Source: Promethearchaeota archaeon
Lineage (GTDB): Archaea; Asgardarchaeota; Thorarchaeia; Thorarchaeales; Thorarchaeaceae
Direction of reading: 5' to 3'
NCBI GenBank assembly: GCA_027031765.1
Contig: JALVPN010000107.1
Coordinates: 1 to 13,392, forward strand
Length of the DNA stretch: 13,392 bases
Below are positions 1,497-13,392 of the stretch, one piece after another. Within the stretch, counting starts at the first letter, position 1. Every line of letters begins with the position of its first letter. Both the position numbers and the translations under genes were made by a program. The notes beneath the pieces are model-generated. The model was not told the origin of the DNA and searched no databases. It saw nothing but the letters and a program-made list of their open reading frames with translations.

Positions 1497-2408
1497 ATGA
1501 CCAAGAGGGCCGCTTTTGCACAGCTGTCATCGTGCTGGGGCTGCGACCAGTCCCTGGTCGACCTACACTTGAAACTGCTGGATGTCCTGCCGGAGCTTGA
1601 GATAGTGTACTGGCCCGCAGTCGTCGACTACAAGCTGAAGGACCTTGAGAACCTCCCAGACCGTTCCATCCACTTCGGGTTCGTGGAGGGCAGCTGTCGG
1701 ACGCGGGAGGACGAACACCTCCTTAGGACAATGCGTGCAAAGAGCAAGGTGCTTGTCGCATGGGGCTCGTGCTCATGCTACGGTGGTGTACAGGGCCTGG
1801 CCAACCAGTGGACACTGAAAGAACTGCTGGAACGCAAGTTCCTCAAGGCAGAGACCATCACTGATGGCAGGATTCCGGACGAGAACGTGCCCGGTTTCAA
1901 AGAGGACATACGGCCGAACCCGGACGTCGTGCCCTTCGACGTACTGCTCCCCGGGTGTCCGCCCACCAGCGACAACACAGCGGAGGCACTGTCGGCCCTC
2001 CTTGCAGGACAGCCCTTCGACCTCCCGGAGAAGACCGTGTGCGACCAGTGCCCAAAGGTGCGGGAGGAGAAGCATATCAAGGTCGTCCACAGGACGCACG
2101 AGGGGAAGGTCGACCCGGAACGCTGCCTCCTCGACCAGGGGTACCTGTGCCTCGGGTTTGCGACCATCGGGATGTGCGGTGCCCAGTGCCCCAGCGTGAA
2201 CACACCGTGCAAGGGGTGCTTCGGGCCTCCACCGGGGATAAAGGACCACGGGGCCAAGATCATCTCGGCACTCGGGGCCATCGCAGAGATGTCGCCAGAA
2301 GAGCTCAAGGAGGCGTTCCCTGACCCGCTGGGCTCGTTCTATTTCACGGACTATGCAGCATCGTACCTGTCACGACTGGTCGGGCACACCAAGGAGGAGG
2401 AACAATGA
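1497..2408 (+). CDS. mvhG: Group 3c-type [NiFe]-hydrogenase small subunit (MvhG/VhuG)
   Basis: Proximal cluster motifs SSCWGC, WGSC and PGCPP; distal Cys-rich part CDQC...CLLDQGYLCLG...CGAQCPSVNTPCKGCFGP. Starts 1 nt after the mvhD stop. Confidence 0.92.
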   Translation: MTKRAAFAQLSSCWGCDQSLVDLHLKLLDVLPELEIVYWPAVVDYKLKDLENLPDRSIHFGFVEGSCRTREDEHLLRTMRAKSKVLVAWGSCSCYGGVQGLANQWTLKELLERKFLKAETITDGRIPDENVPGFKEDIRPNPDVVPFDVLLPGCPPTSDNTAEALSALLAGQPFDLPEKTVCDQCPKVREEKHIKVVHRTHEGKVDPERCLLDQGYLCLGFATIGMCGAQCPSVNTPCKGCFGPPPGIKDHGAKIISALGAIAEMSPEELKEAFPDPLGSFYFTDYAASYLSRLVGHTKEEEQ

Positions 2409-3718
2409 CGGACGAGAGAGTGATAAGGGTCGAGCCGGTCACACGGCTTGAGGGGCACGGCGAGCTCACAATAAGACTCGGCACAGACGGCAAGGTCAGG
2501 GCTGTCCAGTTCAACGTCAGCTCGACACGCTTCTTTGAGAAGTTCCTTGAGGGTAGGTATGCGGAGGAGGCGCCACGGATAGCCCCACGGATATGTGGCA
2601 TATGTCCGGAGCCACACCACCTCGCGTCCGTGAAGGCGGTCGAGGCCGCATGGGGTGTGCACCCACCAGCACCAGCAGTCAAGCTCAGGCGCCTGTTGAT
2701 AAACGCCAAGCAGTATAGCAGCCACGCCCTCCACTTCTTCGCACTCGCAGCACCCGACTTCCTTGCCGGCCCACTGGGCGAGCCTGCCAAACGCAACGTG
2801 GTCGCAATAATCAAGGCGCTACCAGACGTCGGGAAGATGGCGTTGCAGGTGATGCAGTTCGGACAGGAGCTGGCTGCCGCGGTGGGTGGAAAGGCCATCC
2901 ACCCTGTGACAGCAGTGCCAGGCGGGATGATGAACCCGTTCTCCGAAGAGAAGAGGGACGAGTTCCTCAAGAGGGCAGAGCAGGCAATGGAGTGGACGGA
3001 GAGGACCCTCGACCTGGCAAAGAAGGTCGTCGAGGACTACTGGGACGTGGTCACCAAGTTCGCCGTCGTGCCCACGTACTACCTTGGGATGCACAACAAG
3101 GGCGCACTGGAGATCTACGACGGTAAGCTGCGGGTGATGAGCCCGGAGGGCGAGGTCGTGGAGGACTTCAACCCGAAGGACTACCGCAAGTACTATGGTG
3201 AGTATGTCCCTGACCACTCGTACGCCACCCACATATACTACCGGCCGGTGGGCTACCCGGAAGGCATCTGGCGCGCGAACAGCCTTGCACGCATCAACGT
3301 TGCTGACAGGATGGCAACACCCAGGGCACAGGAGGCACTGGAGGAGATGCGCGAGAGGCTCGGGAGGCCCATACATGCCACCTTCGCGTACCACTGGGCA
3401 CGGGTCATCGAGCTGGTGCAGGCGCTGGAAGAGATCACAGTCCTCCTGGAAGACCCTGACATTGTGAGCACGGATGTGAAGCTGTCGGACGTCGAGCCCA
3501 GACGGGGTGAGGGTGTGGGCTGTGTCGAGGCCCCACGGGGCACACTCGTACACAACTACTGGACTGACGAGCGTGGCATCATAACAAAGGCGAACCTTGT
3601 CGTTGCCACGAACAACAACATTGCCGGCATTGAGAAGAGCCTCCTCCAAGCTGCAAGGCAGGTGTTCGAGGAGCACGCACACGAGTCGTTCTCGCTCCCA
3701 AGACCGATGATACCATAG
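2405..3718 (+). CDS. mvhA: Group 3c-type [NiFe]-hydrogenase large subunit lacking the C-terminal L2 motif (VhuA-like)
   Basis: EPVTRLEGH, L1 motif PRICGICPEPHH (C64, C67), VEAPRGTLVHNY, ANLVVAT. ATGA overlap with the mvhG stop. Ends ...QVFEEHAHESFSLPRPMIP with TAG and no DPCxxC. Confidence 0.92.
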   Translation: MTDERVIRVEPVTRLEGHGELTIRLGTDGKVRAVQFNVSSTRFFEKFLEGRYAEEAPRIAPRICGICPEPHHLASVKAVEAAWGVHPPAPAVKLRRLLINAKQYSSHALHFFALAAPDFLAGPLGEPAKRNVVAIIKALPDVGKMALQVMQFGQELAAAVGGKAIHPVTAVPGGMMNPFSEEKRDEFLKRAEQAMEWTERTLDLAKKVVEDYWDVVTKFAVVPTYYLGMHNKGALEIYDGKLRVMSPEGEVVEDFNPKDYRKYYGEYVPDHSYATHIYYRPVGYPEGIWRANSLARINVADRMATPRAQEALEEMRERLGRPIHATFAYHWARVIELVQALEEITVLLEDPDIVSTDVKLSDVEPRRGEGVGCVEAPRGTLVHNYWTDERGIITKANLVVATNNNIAGIEKSLLQAARQVFEEHAHESFSLPRPMIP

Positions 3719-8806: not shown

Positions 8807-9751
8807 ATGGCAAGACCAATGCGGGCAATTGATGACAGACGACACGGCCTAGGCGTATGTGCCATATGTGGTGGCAGTGACTTCTACGAGGATTTCACCC
8901 GTGGGGAGCGGGTCTGCACGAGCTGTGGCTGTGTGGTCTCCGAGCGGATTGTAGACACAGGACCGGAGTGGAGGGCATTCACAGCGGAGGAACGCGATGC
9001 CAGGGCCCGCACCGGGGCACCGTTCACGCTGACGATGGCGGACAAGGGGCTGGCCACCACAATCGGCTGGAGCGACAGGGATGCGAACGGCCGCTCCATT
9101 GCCGCGAGCAGTCGGGCTGCCATCTACAGGATGCGGAAGTGGCAGATAAGGACGCTAGTGCACAGCTCCCAGCACCGGAACCTGAGCATTGCCATGAGCG
9201 AGATGGACCGTCTCTCATCACAGCTGGGTGTGCCGCGGGAGACCAAGGAGACCGCCGCTCTCATCTACAGGAAGGCCCTGAACAAGCGCCTCGTGCGTGG
9301 CCGGAGCATTGAGGGGATGGTCGCAGCTGCAATATACCTGTCGTGCAGGATCCACAAGATACCGCGTCAGCTCGACGAGATAGTCACGGAGGCCCGGGTG
9401 AACCGCAAGGAGCTTGGCCAGTGTGTGCGCCTGATACTGAGGAATGTCAACATCAAGGTGCCAATACCCTCTGCGAACGACCTCATGCCGCGGATCTCTG
9501 CCGAGCTCAGGCTCGACGGGAAGACCGTACAGACGGCGATGCGCATCATTGAGGAGGCGCGTGCAAAGGGGATTACCGCAGGGAAGGACCCCGGTGGCCT
9601 TGCAGCAGCTGCCCTGTACATTGCTGGGATAATCGAGAACGACAGACGCACCCAGCGCGAGATTGCCGAGGCGTCAAACGTGACGGAGGTCACCGTACGG
9701 AACAGGTACAAGGACCTCGCTTACAGTCTACAGATAACAATACGACCATAG
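8807..9751 (+). CDS. tfb: Transcription initiation factor IIB
   Basis: Zn ribbon CAICG...CTSCG, B-reader DTGPEWRAF, two cyclin repeats (LVRGRSIEGMVAAAIY; GKDPGGLAAAALY), C-terminal HTH RTQREIAEASNVTEVTVRNRY. SD GGTGA upstream. Confidence 0.96.
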   Translation: MARPMRAIDDRRHGLGVCAICGGSDFYEDFTRGERVCTSCGCVVSERIVDTGPEWRAFTAEERDARARTGAPFTLTMADKGLATTIGWSDRDANGRSIAASSRAAIYRMRKWQIRTLVHSSQHRNLSIAMSEMDRLSSQLGVPRETKETAALIYRKALNKRLVRGRSIEGMVAAAIYLSCRIHKIPRQLDEIVTEARVNRKELGQCVRLILRNVNIKVPIPSANDLMPRISAELRLDGKTVQTAMRIIEEARAKGITAGKDPGGLAAAALYIAGIIENDRRTQREIAEASNVTEVTVRNRYKDLAYSLQITIRP

Positions 9752-9838
9752 CCGTTAGATGCAGTCCACCACTTTCTGGCCCCATCCGGGGCCACCACCT
9801 TCTTCTTGCTGTTCGTACAGAACTGTGATGGTCATACC

Positions 9839-10618
9839 ATGGAACAGATACTTGTCGTGCTGTGTGGTATCCCTGCATCAGGAAAGAGCACCCTTGCCAG
9901 GGAGCTGGCAAGCCGCATGCGGGCCGAGCGCCAGACATGCATTGTGGACACAGACCGCTGGCGTGCAGAGGTGTACGGTGGATCGTTCAGCCCGGAGAAG
10001 GAGCGGCTCGTACGGGGGCTCTCCCTCAGGGAGGTACGCGAGTGCCTCCGGCGGGGATGGGACGCGGTCCATGACGACACGAACTACTATGCAAGTATGC
10101 GGCACGACCTGCGTCAGGTCGCCTTGGAGGAGGGGTGCCGGTTCGGCGTCGTGCATGTGGCAACACCGCTGTCAGTGGCCCTCGGGTGGAACCGCACACG
10201 GCCCAACATGGTGCCAGAGCATGTCATCAGGAAGATTGCCGAGAGGCTCGACGTACCGGGACAGAAGTATGCATGGGACCGTCCGGTGGCGACCGTAGAC
10301 CTTGCAGTGACAGGTGTTGAAGAGGCAGCAGGGCGAGTACTGCGGGCACTGAGACAGCTTGCGCGTGGACGGGAGCGACGAGTGACACACGGTACGCACG
10401 CAGAGGAGCTTGACCGTACGACGAGAGGCGTTGTCCGACAGTTCCTCAGCGAGCATCTGGAGATGATGGGGGAGCCGGCAGTGCACCGTGCCCGTAAGGA
10501 GGTGCTCCGACAGGCCCTGAGAGAGGGGCGTCCGCCGTCCTGGGCGGCAAGGGAGTTGCGACTGCGACTACGTGGGGTGTTGGACAGGGCGGAGGAGGAC
10601 AGGACAGGCAGTGCCTGA
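9839..10618 (+). CDS. pstK: O-phosphoseryl-tRNA(Sec) kinase
   Basis: Walker A GIPASGKST, plus DDTNYYASMRHDL and RLDVPGQKYAWDRP, which match archaeal PSTK as I recall it. Stop is 30 nt from the tRNA-Sec 3' end. ATG 9839 preferred over 9806. Confidence 0.92.
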   Translation: MEQILVVLCGIPASGKSTLARELASRMRAERQTCIVDTDRWRAEVYGGSFSPEKERLVRGLSLREVRECLRRGWDAVHDDTNYYASMRHDLRQVALEEGCRFGVVHVATPLSVALGWNRTRPNMVPEHVIRKIAERLDVPGQKYAWDRPVATVDLAVTGVEEAAGRVLRALRQLARGRERRVTHGTHAEELDRTTRGVVRQFLSEHLEMMGEPAVHRARKEVLRQALREGRPPSWAARELRLRLRGVLDRAEEDRTGSA

Positions 10619-10648
10619 TGGAGAGGAGAGCTGGAAAAAGACAGTATA

Positions 10649-10739
10649 TGGCGGCTTCCTCAGAGAATCGAACTCTTATCGCTTGCGCGATCACGGGTTT
10701 GAAGCCCGCGGGGCCGGACCACCGGTCCTGGAGGAAGCC
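10649..10739 (-). tRNA. selC: tRNA-Sec (anticodon UCA), 91 nt, archaeal/eukaryotic 9/4 fold, CCA encoded
   Basis: Minus strand: GGCTTCCTC CA GGACCGG TGGT CCGGCCC CGCGGG CTTCAAA CCCGTG ATCGC GCAA GCGAT A AGAG TTCGATT CTCT GAGGAAGCC G CCA. This gives a 9-bp acceptor stem, 7-bp D stem (one A.C mismatch) with 4-nt loop, 6-bp anticodon stem, long variable arm, 4-bp T stem and G discriminator. Confidence 0.96.
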
Positions 10740-10800
10740 ACGGTTGACCAGCACAGGGCTAGGACTGTGGTGGTAAAGGTGTTTCGGACTGGGAACCCAC

Positions 10801-11457
10801 CTAGGCCGGGATGAACTTCTGCAGTAACTTGGAGGTCTCCTGTTTCCACTCGACCGACTTCTTTGCAAGTGCTGTTGCGAAGTCGCCTGGTAGTGGCTGG
10901 TCACGTGGCATGGACTCGAGCTTCTGGAGCCAGGGGGTGGTAGACAGTGGGAGGGGGTGCATGTCGCCACCCTCGATGGCCCTGATGAACATCTCGCGGC
11001 CGTGGGCCACTTGGATGTAGATGGCCTCAGCAGGGGCCCTGGTGAGGACAAGGTGCACGATACGGTCCCAGCAGGTCCTCGCGATGAGCGCCCGCTGCAG
11101 GCGTGTCTTCTGGACCTCGTCCAGTTGTCGGTACGAGACGAGGGCGTCCCTAAGACTGTTGGCAAGACCCTCGACGTGGCTGGTGAGTACGGACTCGTCA
11201 TCACCGTATGACGTTATCTCTGCTGCCTTCTGGGCCTCCTCGACCCACACTCTGACCGTGACCTCGTGGTCGTCAAGCTTGCCTGTGAACAGTGCTTTGC
11301 CCTTGAAAATGGTGCTCTCGGCCTCACTGTGCTCACTCAGGACAAAGCCCGGCTGCGCCGTGACAAAGTGCCATGCAATCCGGAACACGACTGCCGAGTC
11401 TGGGATGTCATATGTGACTGAACGTGACACCTTGATCCTGTCATCCATCTCTTCCAA
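10801..11457 (-). CDS. Hypothetical protein, 218 aa (215 aa from ATG 11448), inside the Sec cluster
   Basis: Protein-like composition; fills the gap between SepSecS (29 nt) and tRNA-Sec (61 nt) on the same strand. TTG 11457 or ATG 11448 start; TAG stop. No family recognised. Confidence 0.8.
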   Translation of the reverse strand: MEEMDDRIKVSRSVTYDIPDSAVVFRIAWHFVTAQPGFVLSEHSEAESTIFKGKALFTGKLDDHEVTVRVWVEEAQKAAEITSYGDDESVLTSHVEGLANSLRDALVSYRQLDEVQKTRLQRALIARTCWDRIVHLVLTRAPAEAIYIQVAHGREMFIRAIEGGDMHPLPLSTTPWLQKLESMPRDQPLPGDFATALAKKSVEWKQETSKLLQKFIPA

Positions 11458-11486
11458 GGCGCAACCCCCTGGGTATTGCAGCGGGC

Positions 11487-12797
11487 CTATTGAGCAACCG
11501 CCTTATAGAGTTTGGTGGTAGCTCTCTCCACATCTTCGCGGCGAGCACCGATGGCCGCATTCATCACAATATAACTGTGTGGGTAGCCATCGATGCACGA
11601 GCCGTGGGCGCCCCTCTCCACCGCACGCGGGCCAGTGACCCTCAGGTTGTACAGTCGCGCACCGACCGCCCTCACATCGTGGCCGTCAAGTGTCAATGCG
11701 CAGGCAACGGGGTTCCAGACATCAAGGAGCTCCTGTCCAATGGACCCCGCAATCTCCCTGAGCCGTTTCTCAAGTAGGGCGCGGTTCTCTGCCTGTTCGC
11801 GTCGCAGTCGCTCGTAGCCCGAGTGTCCCAGCAGGAGCAGTGCCACGAGGGTCTGCAGGACTGGTGCTGCGGACGCACGCCCTGCGTAGGAGCCCGCAAC
11901 CGTATCTATGACCTCGCGGCTCGGCGAGACCACAACAGAGGAGCCGACGGGGGCCAGGAAGTTCTTGTCGCCGCTCTGGACAATGGCATCCACACGGCCA
12001 CCATCAATGGCACGACGGAGCATGTCCATGATGTCGGGGGACTGTATGCCATAGGCATTGTTGACGACAAGCGGGACATCGTGGTCAGCACAGGTCCGCG
12101 CGACCTCTCTCACAGGGTCTGGCTCCCGTGGTGGGAAGAAGGTGGTCGTGCACAGGACGGCACAGTGTTCACGACTGCGGACTGCACGCGCCACCACATC
12201 GGGGTCCGCGCGCACTGCATCGCCCTCGAGCACCGTCGGCAAGGTGACCACCTCAAGGCCTGCAAGACGCACCCCTTTGACCGGTGACGTATGGTCGATA
12301 CGTGGGTGGAGGACACAGCGCACCCCAGAGGCCTGTCGCAGGGCCGACATCACGAGCGCAATGCTCATCCCGGTGGCCATGGGCGTCACAAGGCCGGCAC
12401 GGACATTTGGTAGGCCCAGTCTGCGGGCAGCATCAGTGGCCACATGGTCGGCCAGACGCTGCATTGATGATGCCCCCGGGGCCTTTGGCTGCGGTGCAGT
12501 GAGATGACCACTACGTCCCACGCCATGGTTGAAGCCGCATGACAGCCTGTCGAGGAGTGGGGATACGACACGTCCCTCACGCTCGCCCACGCGGGCTGCC
12601 CCGGGGTCCTTGTCAGAGTCCATGGAGGAGAGGAGCCCGACCAGGAGCCCGACCTGGCGTTCCGAGAGGGGGACATCCGGGAACCTCTGACGGGCCAGCA
12701 GGTCACGGATGGGCGCCACTAGCGCGTCCAGCGTGATACGGCCGCGTGCGGCCATGCCTGGTGGCAACACGTCACTGAGCCAGCGTTCAATGTCCAA
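11487..12797 (-). CDS. spcS: O-phosphoseryl-tRNA(Sec) selenium transferase (SepSecS)
   Basis: RVGEREGR, FNHGVGRSG...PQPKAPGAS, PMATGMSI, VNNAYG and PLP-lysine motif QSGDKNFLAPVG (K278). TTG start overlaps the selB stop by 11 nt. Confidence 0.94.
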   Translation of the reverse strand: MDIERWLSDVLPPGMAARGRITLDALVAPIRDLLARQRFPDVPLSERQVGLLVGLLSSMDSDKDPGAARVGEREGRVVSPLLDRLSCGFNHGVGRSGHLTAPQPKAPGASSMQRLADHVATDAARRLGLPNVRAGLVTPMATGMSIALVMSALRQASGVRCVLHPRIDHTSPVKGVRLAGLEVVTLPTVLEGDAVRADPDVVARAVRSREHCAVLCTTTFFPPREPDPVREVARTCADHDVPLVVNNAYGIQSPDIMDMLRRAIDGGRVDAIVQSGDKNFLAPVGSSVVVSPSREVIDTVAGSYAGRASAAPVLQTLVALLLLGHSGYERLRREQAENRALLEKRLREIAGSIGQELLDVWNPVACALTLDGHDVRAVGARLYNLRVTGPRAVERGAHGSCIDGYPHSYIVMNAAIGARREDVERATTKLYKAVAQ

Positions 12798-13392
12798 GCT
12801 GTACGACCTCCTCTACAGACTGCTCAAGCAGTACCGGCTCACCACGACTGACTTCCCCAGCGAACGACACTGCCACGACCCCACGTGTGCCGAAGGCCGA
12901 GAGCAGTGTACCAGAAACGCCGCTCTCTGTGACGACCCGGTCGCCGACAGCGCGCTGGGCCGCTTCCCGTCTTGAGAACAGGCCCTCGACAAGGACATCG
13001 GACGCACGCACACGCAGGACACGGCCTGTCAACCGGCGTCTGCGCACCAGAGTCACCGACTGCGGGAGGTCAGTGACCTCGCCCCATGCCACTATGCGCA
13101 TGGCTGTGGGTGGCAGGTCTGGGCGCATCAACAGGACCCTCATCCCCGGTGTGGCTGCCAGTTGTCTGCGCAGCAGCAGGACAGCACCGAACCCGCCCTC
13201 AGTGACCTGCTCCACACGGACATGGGCGCCAGCCTCCGTGATGAAGGGCACAATCTCACAGCTGACGGTCGGCATGCCAATGGTGGCGCTCAGGGTCATC
13301 CCCCGGGTCACACATCCACGGTACAGGGGCTCCATCTGCAAGTGCACGACAACGCCCGACACCCGACGCAACAGTCCCGGCCCAGAGAGGTA
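12787..13392 (-). CDS. selB: Selenocysteine-specific elongation factor SelB, archaeal type, 3' part (5'-truncated by window edge)
   Basis: Frame is open to the window edge (YLSGPGLLRRV...). RVLLMRPDLPPTAMRI and VEGLF...GTLLSAFGTRGVVAVSF match domains III/IV of archaeal SelB as I recall them. Adjacent to SepSecS. Confidence 0.87.
   Translation of the reverse strand, partial: YLSGPGLLRRVSGVVVHLQMEPLYRGCVTRGMTLSATIGMPTVSCEIVPFITEAGAHVRVEQVTEGGFGAVLLLRRQLAATPGMRVLLMRPDLPPTAMRIVAWGEVTDLPQSVTLVRRRRLTGRVLRVRASDVLVEGLFSRREAAQRAVGDRVVTESGVSGTLLSAFGTRGVVAVSFAGEVSRGEPVLLEQSVEEVVQLGH

Follow-up and report, generated by a model that had tools for sequence, protein, structure and literature searches.

The 13,392-nt stretch of DNA analysed here (hereafter the window) is the whole of contig C107 (13.4 kb; JALVPN010000107.1) of a 2.95-Mb genome that is 95% complete and 61% GC, and its source organism is a Thorarchaeia-type Asgard archaeon, not a Lokiarchaeon. 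The window carries an island of selenocysteine (Sec) genes (Table 1) in which a 218-aa open reading frame (ORF), here called X, follows SepSecS after a spacer of 29 nt and precedes tRNA-Sec by 61 nt, all three on the minus strand. The truncated SelB gene upstream overlaps the start of SepSecS by 11 nt, and PSTK converges on tRNA-Sec from the other side, a position conserved in Thorarchaeia loci. An initial annotation, made from the sequence before any database search, had described this co-oriented packing correctly and proposed by guilt of association that X could be a missing component of archaeal Sec decoding, whether an adaptor between SelB and the selenocysteine insertion sequence (SECIS), a tRNA-Sec factor, or a selenium-handling protein. 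Our analysis places X in an Asgard-restricted protein family that has stayed beside SepSecS over very deep divergence, that is also kept by archaea without Sec, and whose predicted structure points to an adaptor between proteins rather than a decoding factor.

X is a real gene, as indicated by 82 homologues in a sequence search, a match to a curated family above its cut-off, and strong purifying selection in its relatives. The frame opens with TTG, and an AGGGGG stretch ends 8 nt upstream of this codon; because of this stretch, and because the closest homologue starts MEEMDD, we prefer the 218-aa TTG form to the 215-aa ATG form of a database record. In the spacer between X and tRNA-Sec, a TTTA-containing stretch (10771-10778, minus strand) lies ~35 nt before the 5′ end of the tRNA. 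Judged from the letters alone, it could be a promoter of tRNA-Sec's own, in which case co-transcription with X would not be required. Among the sequencing runs listed for positions 10600-12900 there was no RNA data set; the one match was a hydrothermal-vent metagenome from which the DNA may itself derive.

Table 1. Genes and domains of the Sec island in the window, followed by the fused paralogues of X at their own loci.
Feature	Position	Strand	Evidence or remark
X, Sel_Asgard family member	10801..11457	-	218-aa ORF; NF045535; homologues; AlphaFold2 model
X, start and stop	stop codon 10801-10803; alternative ATG 11448	-	TTG start; the ATG is codon 4
X, N-terminal alpha/beta domain (residues 1-112), predicted TBP/helix-grip fold	11122..11457	-	predicted structure comparison, fold level only
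X, C-terminal helical domain (residues 113-218), predicted Vps28-C-like four-helix bundle	10804..11121	-	structure and profile comparison
SepSecS (O-phosphoseryl-tRNA(Sec) selenium transferase)	11487..12797	-	TIGR03531 431 bits; Pfam SepSecS E 7.7e-113
Archaeal SelB, C-terminal part, truncated by contig end	12787..13392	-	Pfam aSelB_III 38.4 bits
tRNA-Sec (UCA)	10649..10739	-	ARAGORN; Rfam RF01852 59.8 bits
PSTK (L-seryl-tRNA(Sec) kinase)	9806..10618	+	TIGR03574 127.5 bits (below cut-off); KTI12 101.8 bits
TFB (transcription factor IIB), conserved flank of the Thorarchaeia Sec island	8807..9751	+	NF001658 423.5 bits
Fused paralogue, locus L044	1222..3594	+	
Fused paralogue, locus L045	2983..5187	-	
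Fused paralogue, locus L046	2011..3591	+	
Fused paralogue, locus L047	2479..4638	-	
Fused paralogue, locus L048	1153..3558	+	
Fused paralogue, locus L108	1198..3552	+	

Among NCBIfam models X matches only NF045535 ("Sel_Asgard, putative selenocysteine system protein," an equivalog), at 188.6 bits (E 1.1e-55; cut-off 132), with residues 19-212 aligned to model positions 3-194 of 195 and thus at full length; its score in the genome-wide profile search was 188.4 bits, and a Pfam search with X gave no match. A gene-neighbourhood analysis had already described an Asgard-exclusive hypothetical protein (e.g., MBD3157761.1) that is often found near secS, efSec, and pstk (Huang, Xiao and Zhang, 2024, ISME J; PMC11227280). 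Equated by its description rather than by its sequence, that protein probably represents the family of X, and an Asgard-only protein beside Sec genes is not mentioned by Mariotti et al. (2016). X is one more member of a family that was already catalogued and published, and shows no difference at the family level. Of 400 genomes of the phylum, 281 have the family (250 above the cut-off) and 243 have SepSecS, and the family occurs in none of 14 control genomes; a search of 1.84 billion proteins returned only 18 cluster representatives at E ≤ 1e-3. Named homologues come from Thor-, Loki-, Prometh-, Hermod-, and Odinarchaeota, and the distribution of the family is Asgard-restricted.

Where both genes are present, X and SepSecS form a pair. 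In every genome with coordinates listed for both (more than 40, from the Thorarchaeia genome family f1 and the Lokiarchaeia genome family f22; e.g., G335, G384, G164, G189, and G242), X shares the strand of SepSecS and begins 90-725 nt downstream of it, and the same arrangement recurs in G117 (genome family f16) and G002 (f4). Thorarchaeia loci have the order SepSecS>X>tRNA-Sec<PSTK<TFB, as in the window. The tRNA-Sec gene directly follows X at 15 of 19 Thorarchaeia loci and at none of 11 Lokiarchaeia loci, which have neither tRNA-Sec nor PSTK within 1.5 kb downstream of X. Because the Lokiarchaeia loci keep only SepSecS>X, the conserved core of the neighbourhood is this pair, and it has been kept despite an identity of only ~15% between Thorarchaeia and Lokiarchaeia copies of X. 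By gene neighbourhood, then, X behaves as a Sec-system component in Thorarchaeia, Lokiarchaeia, f4, and f16, and to this extent the argument from association in the initial annotation has stood across deeply diverged Asgard classes.

The stronger reading in that annotation, a missing Sec-decoding component, is weakened by the phylogenetic profile, in which co-occurrence of X with the Sec trait fails in both directions; the annotation itself had named homologues in Sec-negative genomes as refuting its proposal. Sec-using genome families carry X in 78/85, 134/135, 14/14, and 5/6 genomes, but X is also carried where SepSecS is lacking: by all 19 genomes of Hermodarchaeia (f14; SepSecS 0/19), by all four of the Odinarchaeia-type family f29 (SepSecS 0/4), among them Odinarchaeum yellowstonii LCB_4, whose genome is closed (protein WEU40612.1), by two of three in f28 (SepSecS 0/3), by three of four in f6 (SepSecS 0/4), and by G311, a single genome of the same order as the source genome (SepSecS 0/1). 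In five Sec-negative genomes bearing X (91-98% complete), we found no aSelB_III, no SelD above the cut-off, and no PSTK above 48 bits, compared with 127 bits for the PSTK of the window; the tRNA-Sec covariance model also matches ordinary tRNAs below threshold and is of limited use for calling absences. Copies from Sec-free genomes score above the NF045535 cut-off (157 bits in G100, Hermodarchaeia; 143 bits in G304, Odinarchaeum LCB_4), and 13 Hermodarchaeia copies have a median pairwise ratio of nonsynonymous to synonymous substitution rates (dN/dS) of 0.05. A maximum-likelihood tree of X follows taxonomy, with G311 sister to Thorarchaeia (95/94) and Lokiarchaeia in one clade (100/100), so the Sec-free copies are orthologues and not a separate paralogue clade. 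At the G311 locus (L041/L035, C23), X still adjoins TFB, and PSTK, tRNA-Sec, SepSecS, and SelB are gone, as though the Sec genes on its flanks had been cleanly excised.

The opposite break is seen in Borrarchaeum (f30), where all five genomes, two of them at 100% completeness, have SepSecS and none has an X that could be found, also with a broader profile; the genes flanking SepSecS there are unrelated to X. Sec use and eukaryote-like SECIS elements have been reported from this Sifarchaeia/Borrarchaeales clade (Huang et al., 2024; PMC11227280). Helarchaeales (f18 and f19) have SelB-SepSecS, and their sole relative of Sel_Asgard is an unlinked 130-137-aa protein that equals the C-terminal domain of X and keeps its invariant D..Y..RE..W..WK motif. 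These short proteins (L050:3953-4342(-) and L051:3977-4387(-), in G126 and G128) are encoded on a contig other than that of SelB-SepSecS. The profile does not support the Sec role implied by the family name as an exclusive one, and the name "putative selenocysteine system protein" gets transferred wrongly by automatic annotation to genomes without selenocysteine. At a contig end of G299 (91% complete; no SepSecS, aSelB, or PSTK), positions C43:4-89 match the tRNA-Sec model at 50.3 bits (gathering score 47), which reflects either a long-arm tRNA or Sec genes left unassembled in that genome. An in-frame TGA in the X copy of G115 was considered as a Sec codon and rejected, as it is the stop of a slightly shorter protein.

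The structure of X was predicted with AlphaFold2 from an alignment of 36 sequences from Thorarchaeia, Lokiarchaeia, and Sec-free lineages, and the model is of high confidence (predicted local distance difference test score 94.4; predicted template modelling score 0.91). Residues 1-112 form a beta-alpha-beta4 domain and residues 113-218 a helical bundle, with strands and helices up to residue 85 and then five helices between residues 88 and 212, in agreement with the alpha/beta and helical halves that the initial annotation had read from the sequence. Five residues are invariant in the family (F25, D131, R154, E155, and K205) and A55 and Y147 nearly so; all of the invariant residues except F25, together with Y147, lie within the C-terminal bundle. 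In an exhaustive structural alignment, residues 118-212 superpose on the C-terminal domain of yeast Vps28 (2j9u_A; Z 10.8, root mean square deviation (rmsd) 2.2, 92/94 aa). The N-terminal domain (residues 1-104) aligns in VIA-align with the AP2 beta appendage platform (3h1z; Z 10.3, rmsd 2.9, 96 aa), and then with those of gamma-COP (1r4x; Z 10.0), AP2 alpha (1w80; Z 9.7), and AP4 beta (2mj7; Z 9.3), at an overall rmsd of 2.6-3.0 over 92-104 aa. Its scores with KA1, COR, Bet v1, Flpp3, DUF3568, and other TBP/helix-grip folds are similar, and the domain also drew a Foldseek match to Flpp3 (6pny; above E 1e-3) and an ESM Atlas match to DUF3568. The ESM Atlas places the same domain in a 788-aa Asgard PCI/DDRGK/UFL1-like cluster (rmsd 2.2 over 116 aa) and an X-type N-terminal domain in several Thorarchaeia multidomain proteins. 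Foldseek against the Protein Data Bank (PDB) gave no match at E ≤ 1e-3, the family profile searched against PDB sequences gave nothing below E 0.06, and an ESM Atlas feature search gave no usable match. The predicted N-terminal domain has a TBP/helix-grip fold and resembles the adaptin/COPI appendage platform at the level of fold only.

Fold Z values alone prove little, and sequence evidence was therefore sought. Loki-type genomes (f19, f21, f22, and f23) contain second, weak NF045535 matches at the C-terminus (internally in L047) of 526-801-aa proteins built of several PCI/DDRGK/UFL1-like winged-helix repeats (Table 1), one of which NCBI names only "PCI domain-containing protein." The fused module aligns with the whole of X (hhalign 98.6%, E 6e-16, 192 columns), and the fused modules align with 24 Asgard Vps28 proteins (94.9%, E 4.6e-8). 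Aligned directly to the same 24 proteins, the X family gives 63% (E 7e-5) over 94 C-terminal columns only, at X residues 118-214 and in the register of the structural match. The last 100 residues of the fused module match Pfam VPS28, and one protein serves as a bridge: L108 (G132, 784 aa) matches NF045535 at residues 587-769 (E 6.7e-11) and, overlapping that match, Pfam VPS28 at residues 683-780 (36.7 bits against a gathering score of 24.5). On these profile comparisons, the C-terminal domain of X is very probably homologous to the C-terminal domain of Vps28. X is not a Vps28 orthologue, however, since canonical Vps28 coexists with it in Hermodarchaeia, Odinarchaeum, and Lokiarchaeia genomes.

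Some details of Vps28 and its partners in these genomes are worth recording. Pfam-detectable Vps28 was found in none of 85 Thorarchaeia-family genomes at E ≤ 1e-8 and in none of 13 at E ≤ 1e-3. In the source genome, the N-terminal (steadiness-box) part of Vps28 occurs as a fusion with an EAP30/Vps22-36-like protein (C117:5099-5911(+)). For a Vps28-C-type bundle, X is the only clear match there. Co-occurrence with the endosomal sorting complex ESCRT-II was considered as a discriminator and proved uninformative, with EAP30 proteins in all five genomes tested, X-less Borrarchaeum included. At least 10 genomes of the Lokiarchaeia family f22 carry a Vps28-like gene on the contig of the SepSecS-X pair, at a distance of 6.6-10 kb (G179 (L079, C86:46000-64000), G198, G200, G205, G208, G212, G238, G182, G184, G270, G149, and G145); in G179, unrelated genes for RtcA, a NUDIX protein, a SAM hydroxide adenosyltransferase, and a Yip1-like protein lie in between. 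This proximity may be no more than a gene order conserved within that family.

In eukaryotes the appendage platform subdomain is a hub that binds peptide motifs, and the Vps28 C-terminal domain couples ESCRT-I to the winged-helix proteins of ESCRT-II. We hypothesize, giving the idea about an even chance, that X is a small soluble two-domain protein-protein adaptor peculiar to Asgard archaea, with a core function independent of Sec and co-expressed with SepSecS where Sec exists. The core job of such an adaptor would need neither selenium nor selenocysteine, because strong selection maintains X in classes that are free of Sec. In the Sec-using Thorarchaeia, Lokiarchaeia, and related lineages, X would be co-expressed with SepSecS from its position directly downstream, and one of its binding surfaces would tether or organise a Sec-pathway protein, with SepSecS as the prime candidate, against a partner present in all of these archaea. 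The profile and the synteny could be reconciled most simply in this way: the partner would be general, and the client in Sec-users would be SepSecS or the product of a neighbouring gene. The deep SepSecS-X synteny argues for some functional tie in these lineages.

Several points weigh against a general adaptor. The SepSecS>X order is conserved very deeply, as expected of a true pathway component rather than of a general adaptor, and where Sec is lacking, the neighbourhoods of X differ between lineages and offer no clue to a general function. The likeness of the N-terminal domain to appendage platforms is one of fold level only, the Vps28 score is tied with those of unrelated generic four-helix bundles, and such bundles and TBP-like folds are common. 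Searches with X and 36 family members gave no direct Pfam VPS28 match for X itself, so that the proposed homology runs through a transitive chain, and any protein partner is putative only. Lokiarchaeia copies are neutral to basic, and RNA contact may be possible there. The predicted complex of X with SepSecS scored 0.00 in two runs without controls, a result that speaks neither for nor against binding. A more specific form of the adaptor hypothesis, which we consider doubtful, is that the Vps28-C-type bundle of X physically links the machinery of Sec synthesis or delivery (SepSecS, or SelB with Sec-tRNA) to a partner of winged-helix or ESCRT-II-like type, with the platform-type domain gripping a short motif on the Sec enzyme. 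If so, Sec-tRNA synthesis would be localised or channelled in an Asgard-specific manner by modules later used for trafficking in eukaryotes, and the Vps28-C-type coupling would be reused for other clients in Sec-free lineages.

The same data can be read with a tighter or a looser bond between X and Sec. X could be a dedicated accessory of the Sec pathway, a scaffold or chaperone for SepSecS that, for example, couples PSTK, SepSecS, SelD, or SelB or hands over Sec-tRNA, the Sec-negative copies having been recruited secondarily. This inference was drawn by the curators at NCBI and by Huang et al. (2024; PMC11227280), and it would account for the frequency of X in Sec-using families and for its place directly downstream of SepSecS in Thorarchaeia, Lokiarchaeia, f4, f16, and related families. 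We nevertheless think it rather unlikely, perhaps one chance among several, because Hermodarchaeia, Odinarchaeum, f28, f6, and G311 have X and no genes for Sec or selenium, with dN/dS at ~0.05; because Borrarchaeum has SepSecS without X, and Helarchaeales only the unlinked C-terminal domain; and because the Sec-negative copies are orthologous by tree position, G311 having lost the flanking Sec genes and kept X. The family also has no conserved cysteine: the single cysteine of X noted in the initial annotation is present as C127, a position that other family members do not conserve. The persistence of X in G311 also fits a reading with no functional link at all, with SepSecS>X an inherited neutral order or a matter of transcriptional context, and X serving some unrelated process, ESCRT-like or other. 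Its domain make-up is that of trafficking-type adaptors in Asgard archaea, a Vps28-like gene is nearby in Lokiarchaeia, and the adjacency to tRNA-Sec is specific to Thorarchaeia, all of which suit such a reading. So tight an order is rarely neutral at class-level divergence, however, above all when the positions of PSTK, tRNA-Sec, and SelB have all changed, and the short spacers, as in the window, suggest co-transcription; a complete lack of connection is thus improbable in our view, less so than the decoding role considered next.

A decoding role for X, as a functional analogue of the eukaryotic SECIS-binding protein 2 (SBP2) that would connect archaeal SelB at the ribosome with the eukaryote-like kink-turn SECIS, either directly or by way of L7Ae, is attractive by position. 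Archaeal SelB lacks a SECIS-binding extension, no SBP2 has been found in Asgard archaea, X and SelB belong to one string of genes in the window, and Lokiarchaeia copies are basic, with an isoelectric point (pI) of up to 9.4. Nonetheless, X occurs in Sec-free lineages and is missing from Borrarchaeum, whose clade is reported to have eukaryote-like SECIS elements (PMC11227280), and this two-way dissociation from the Sec trait weakens X as a SECIS/SelB-decoding factor. The conserved adjacency is to SepSecS and not to SelB, and Lokiarchaeia loci are without PSTK and tRNA-Sec nearby. Among 36 family members searched, no L7Ae or other Pfam RNA-binding family was matched at E ≤ 1, and the structure prediction proposed in the initial annotation as a way to recognise an L7Ae or other RNA-binding fold revealed none, turning up instead the TBP/appendage-platform-like domain and the Vps28-C-like bundle, both of which match protein-interaction modules. 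X itself is acidic (pI 5.7), consistent with the earlier remark that its composition is not notably basic, and pI ranges from 4.8 to 9.4 across the family, with Thorarchaeia copies acidic (~5), Lokiarchaeia copies neutral to basic, and no conserved charge. Because no member matches an RNA-binding family and no charged surface is conserved, X is best read, on sequence grounds, as neither a SECIS nor a tRNA binder, and we infer that it binds protein rather than RNA; we hold the SBP2-like role to be very improbable. A selenium-handling role was rejected as well, given the lack of a conserved cysteine and the absence of SelD from Sec-negative genomes that keep X. A further candidate, a shared adaptor of SepCysS and SepSecS, was rejected, SepCysS being present in only two of the five Sec-negative X-bearing genomes.

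Elsewhere in the window, a VhuA-like hydrogenase large subunit is encoded at 2405-3718 (+), next to VhuD/VhuG-like genes; the NCBIfam model reached only to position 417 of 418 in this protein, with a sub-threshold score.

By position, X is the obvious candidate for the factor that lets Asgard archaea, without an SBP2, read SECIS elements of the eukaryote-like kind. Its distribution argues against an obligatory decoding role, which may spare effort for those who seek the missing factor. What is new here is the assignment, based on the predicted model and on profile comparisons, of an appendage-platform-like TBP fold and a probable Vps28-C domain, together with the link to the fused winged-helix paralogues. 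X emerges as a small Asgard-only protein composed, on this assignment, of two eukaryote-type interaction modules, and its synteny with SepSecS is very old. Should X tether SepSecS to a general partner, the Sec pathway would be linked to an expanding family of Asgard ESCRT-type adaptors.

Beyond its own family, X can be set beside several known systems. SepCysE is the adaptor of the methanogen SepRS-SepCysS complex, and SBP2 binds the SECIS in eukaryotes; both are analogues of X in concept only, as accessory factors that tether components in recoding or in a tRNA-dependent amino-acid pathway. X lacks the L7Ae domain of SBP2 and resembles it in neither sequence nor fold, and SepCysS is absent from three of the five Sec-negative genomes that keep X. 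The likeness to Vps28 is confined to the four-helix bundle at residues 118-212, where superposition and profile match agree in register; X has no N-terminal steadiness-box/core domain, the part that builds the ESCRT-I headpiece, and its residues 1-112 are alpha/beta. At the level of fold, the N-terminal domain resembles the platform found in the appendages of adaptins and COPI, but X lacks the IG-like beta-sandwich that precedes that platform, and has only 112 residues before the bundle. The pairing of an adaptin-appendage region with Vps28-C recurs in Asgard multidomain ESCRT-accessory proteins, and such "Vps28-C + adaptin appendage" proteins have been proposed to serve, by analogy with ESCRT-0, as cargo adaptors (Makarova et al., 2024, mBio; PMC10936438); we found no sign in that study of the X family being named. 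Like those proteins, X would pair a TBP-fold appendage-type domain with a Vps28-C bundle, and fusions of its module with HTH/PCI winged-helix repeats, of the kind listed there (PMC10936438), occur as well. Unlike them, X is a minimal stand-alone form that dispenses with longin, TPR, and Zn-ribbon domains, and its genomic link is with SepSecS, not with ESCRT loci.

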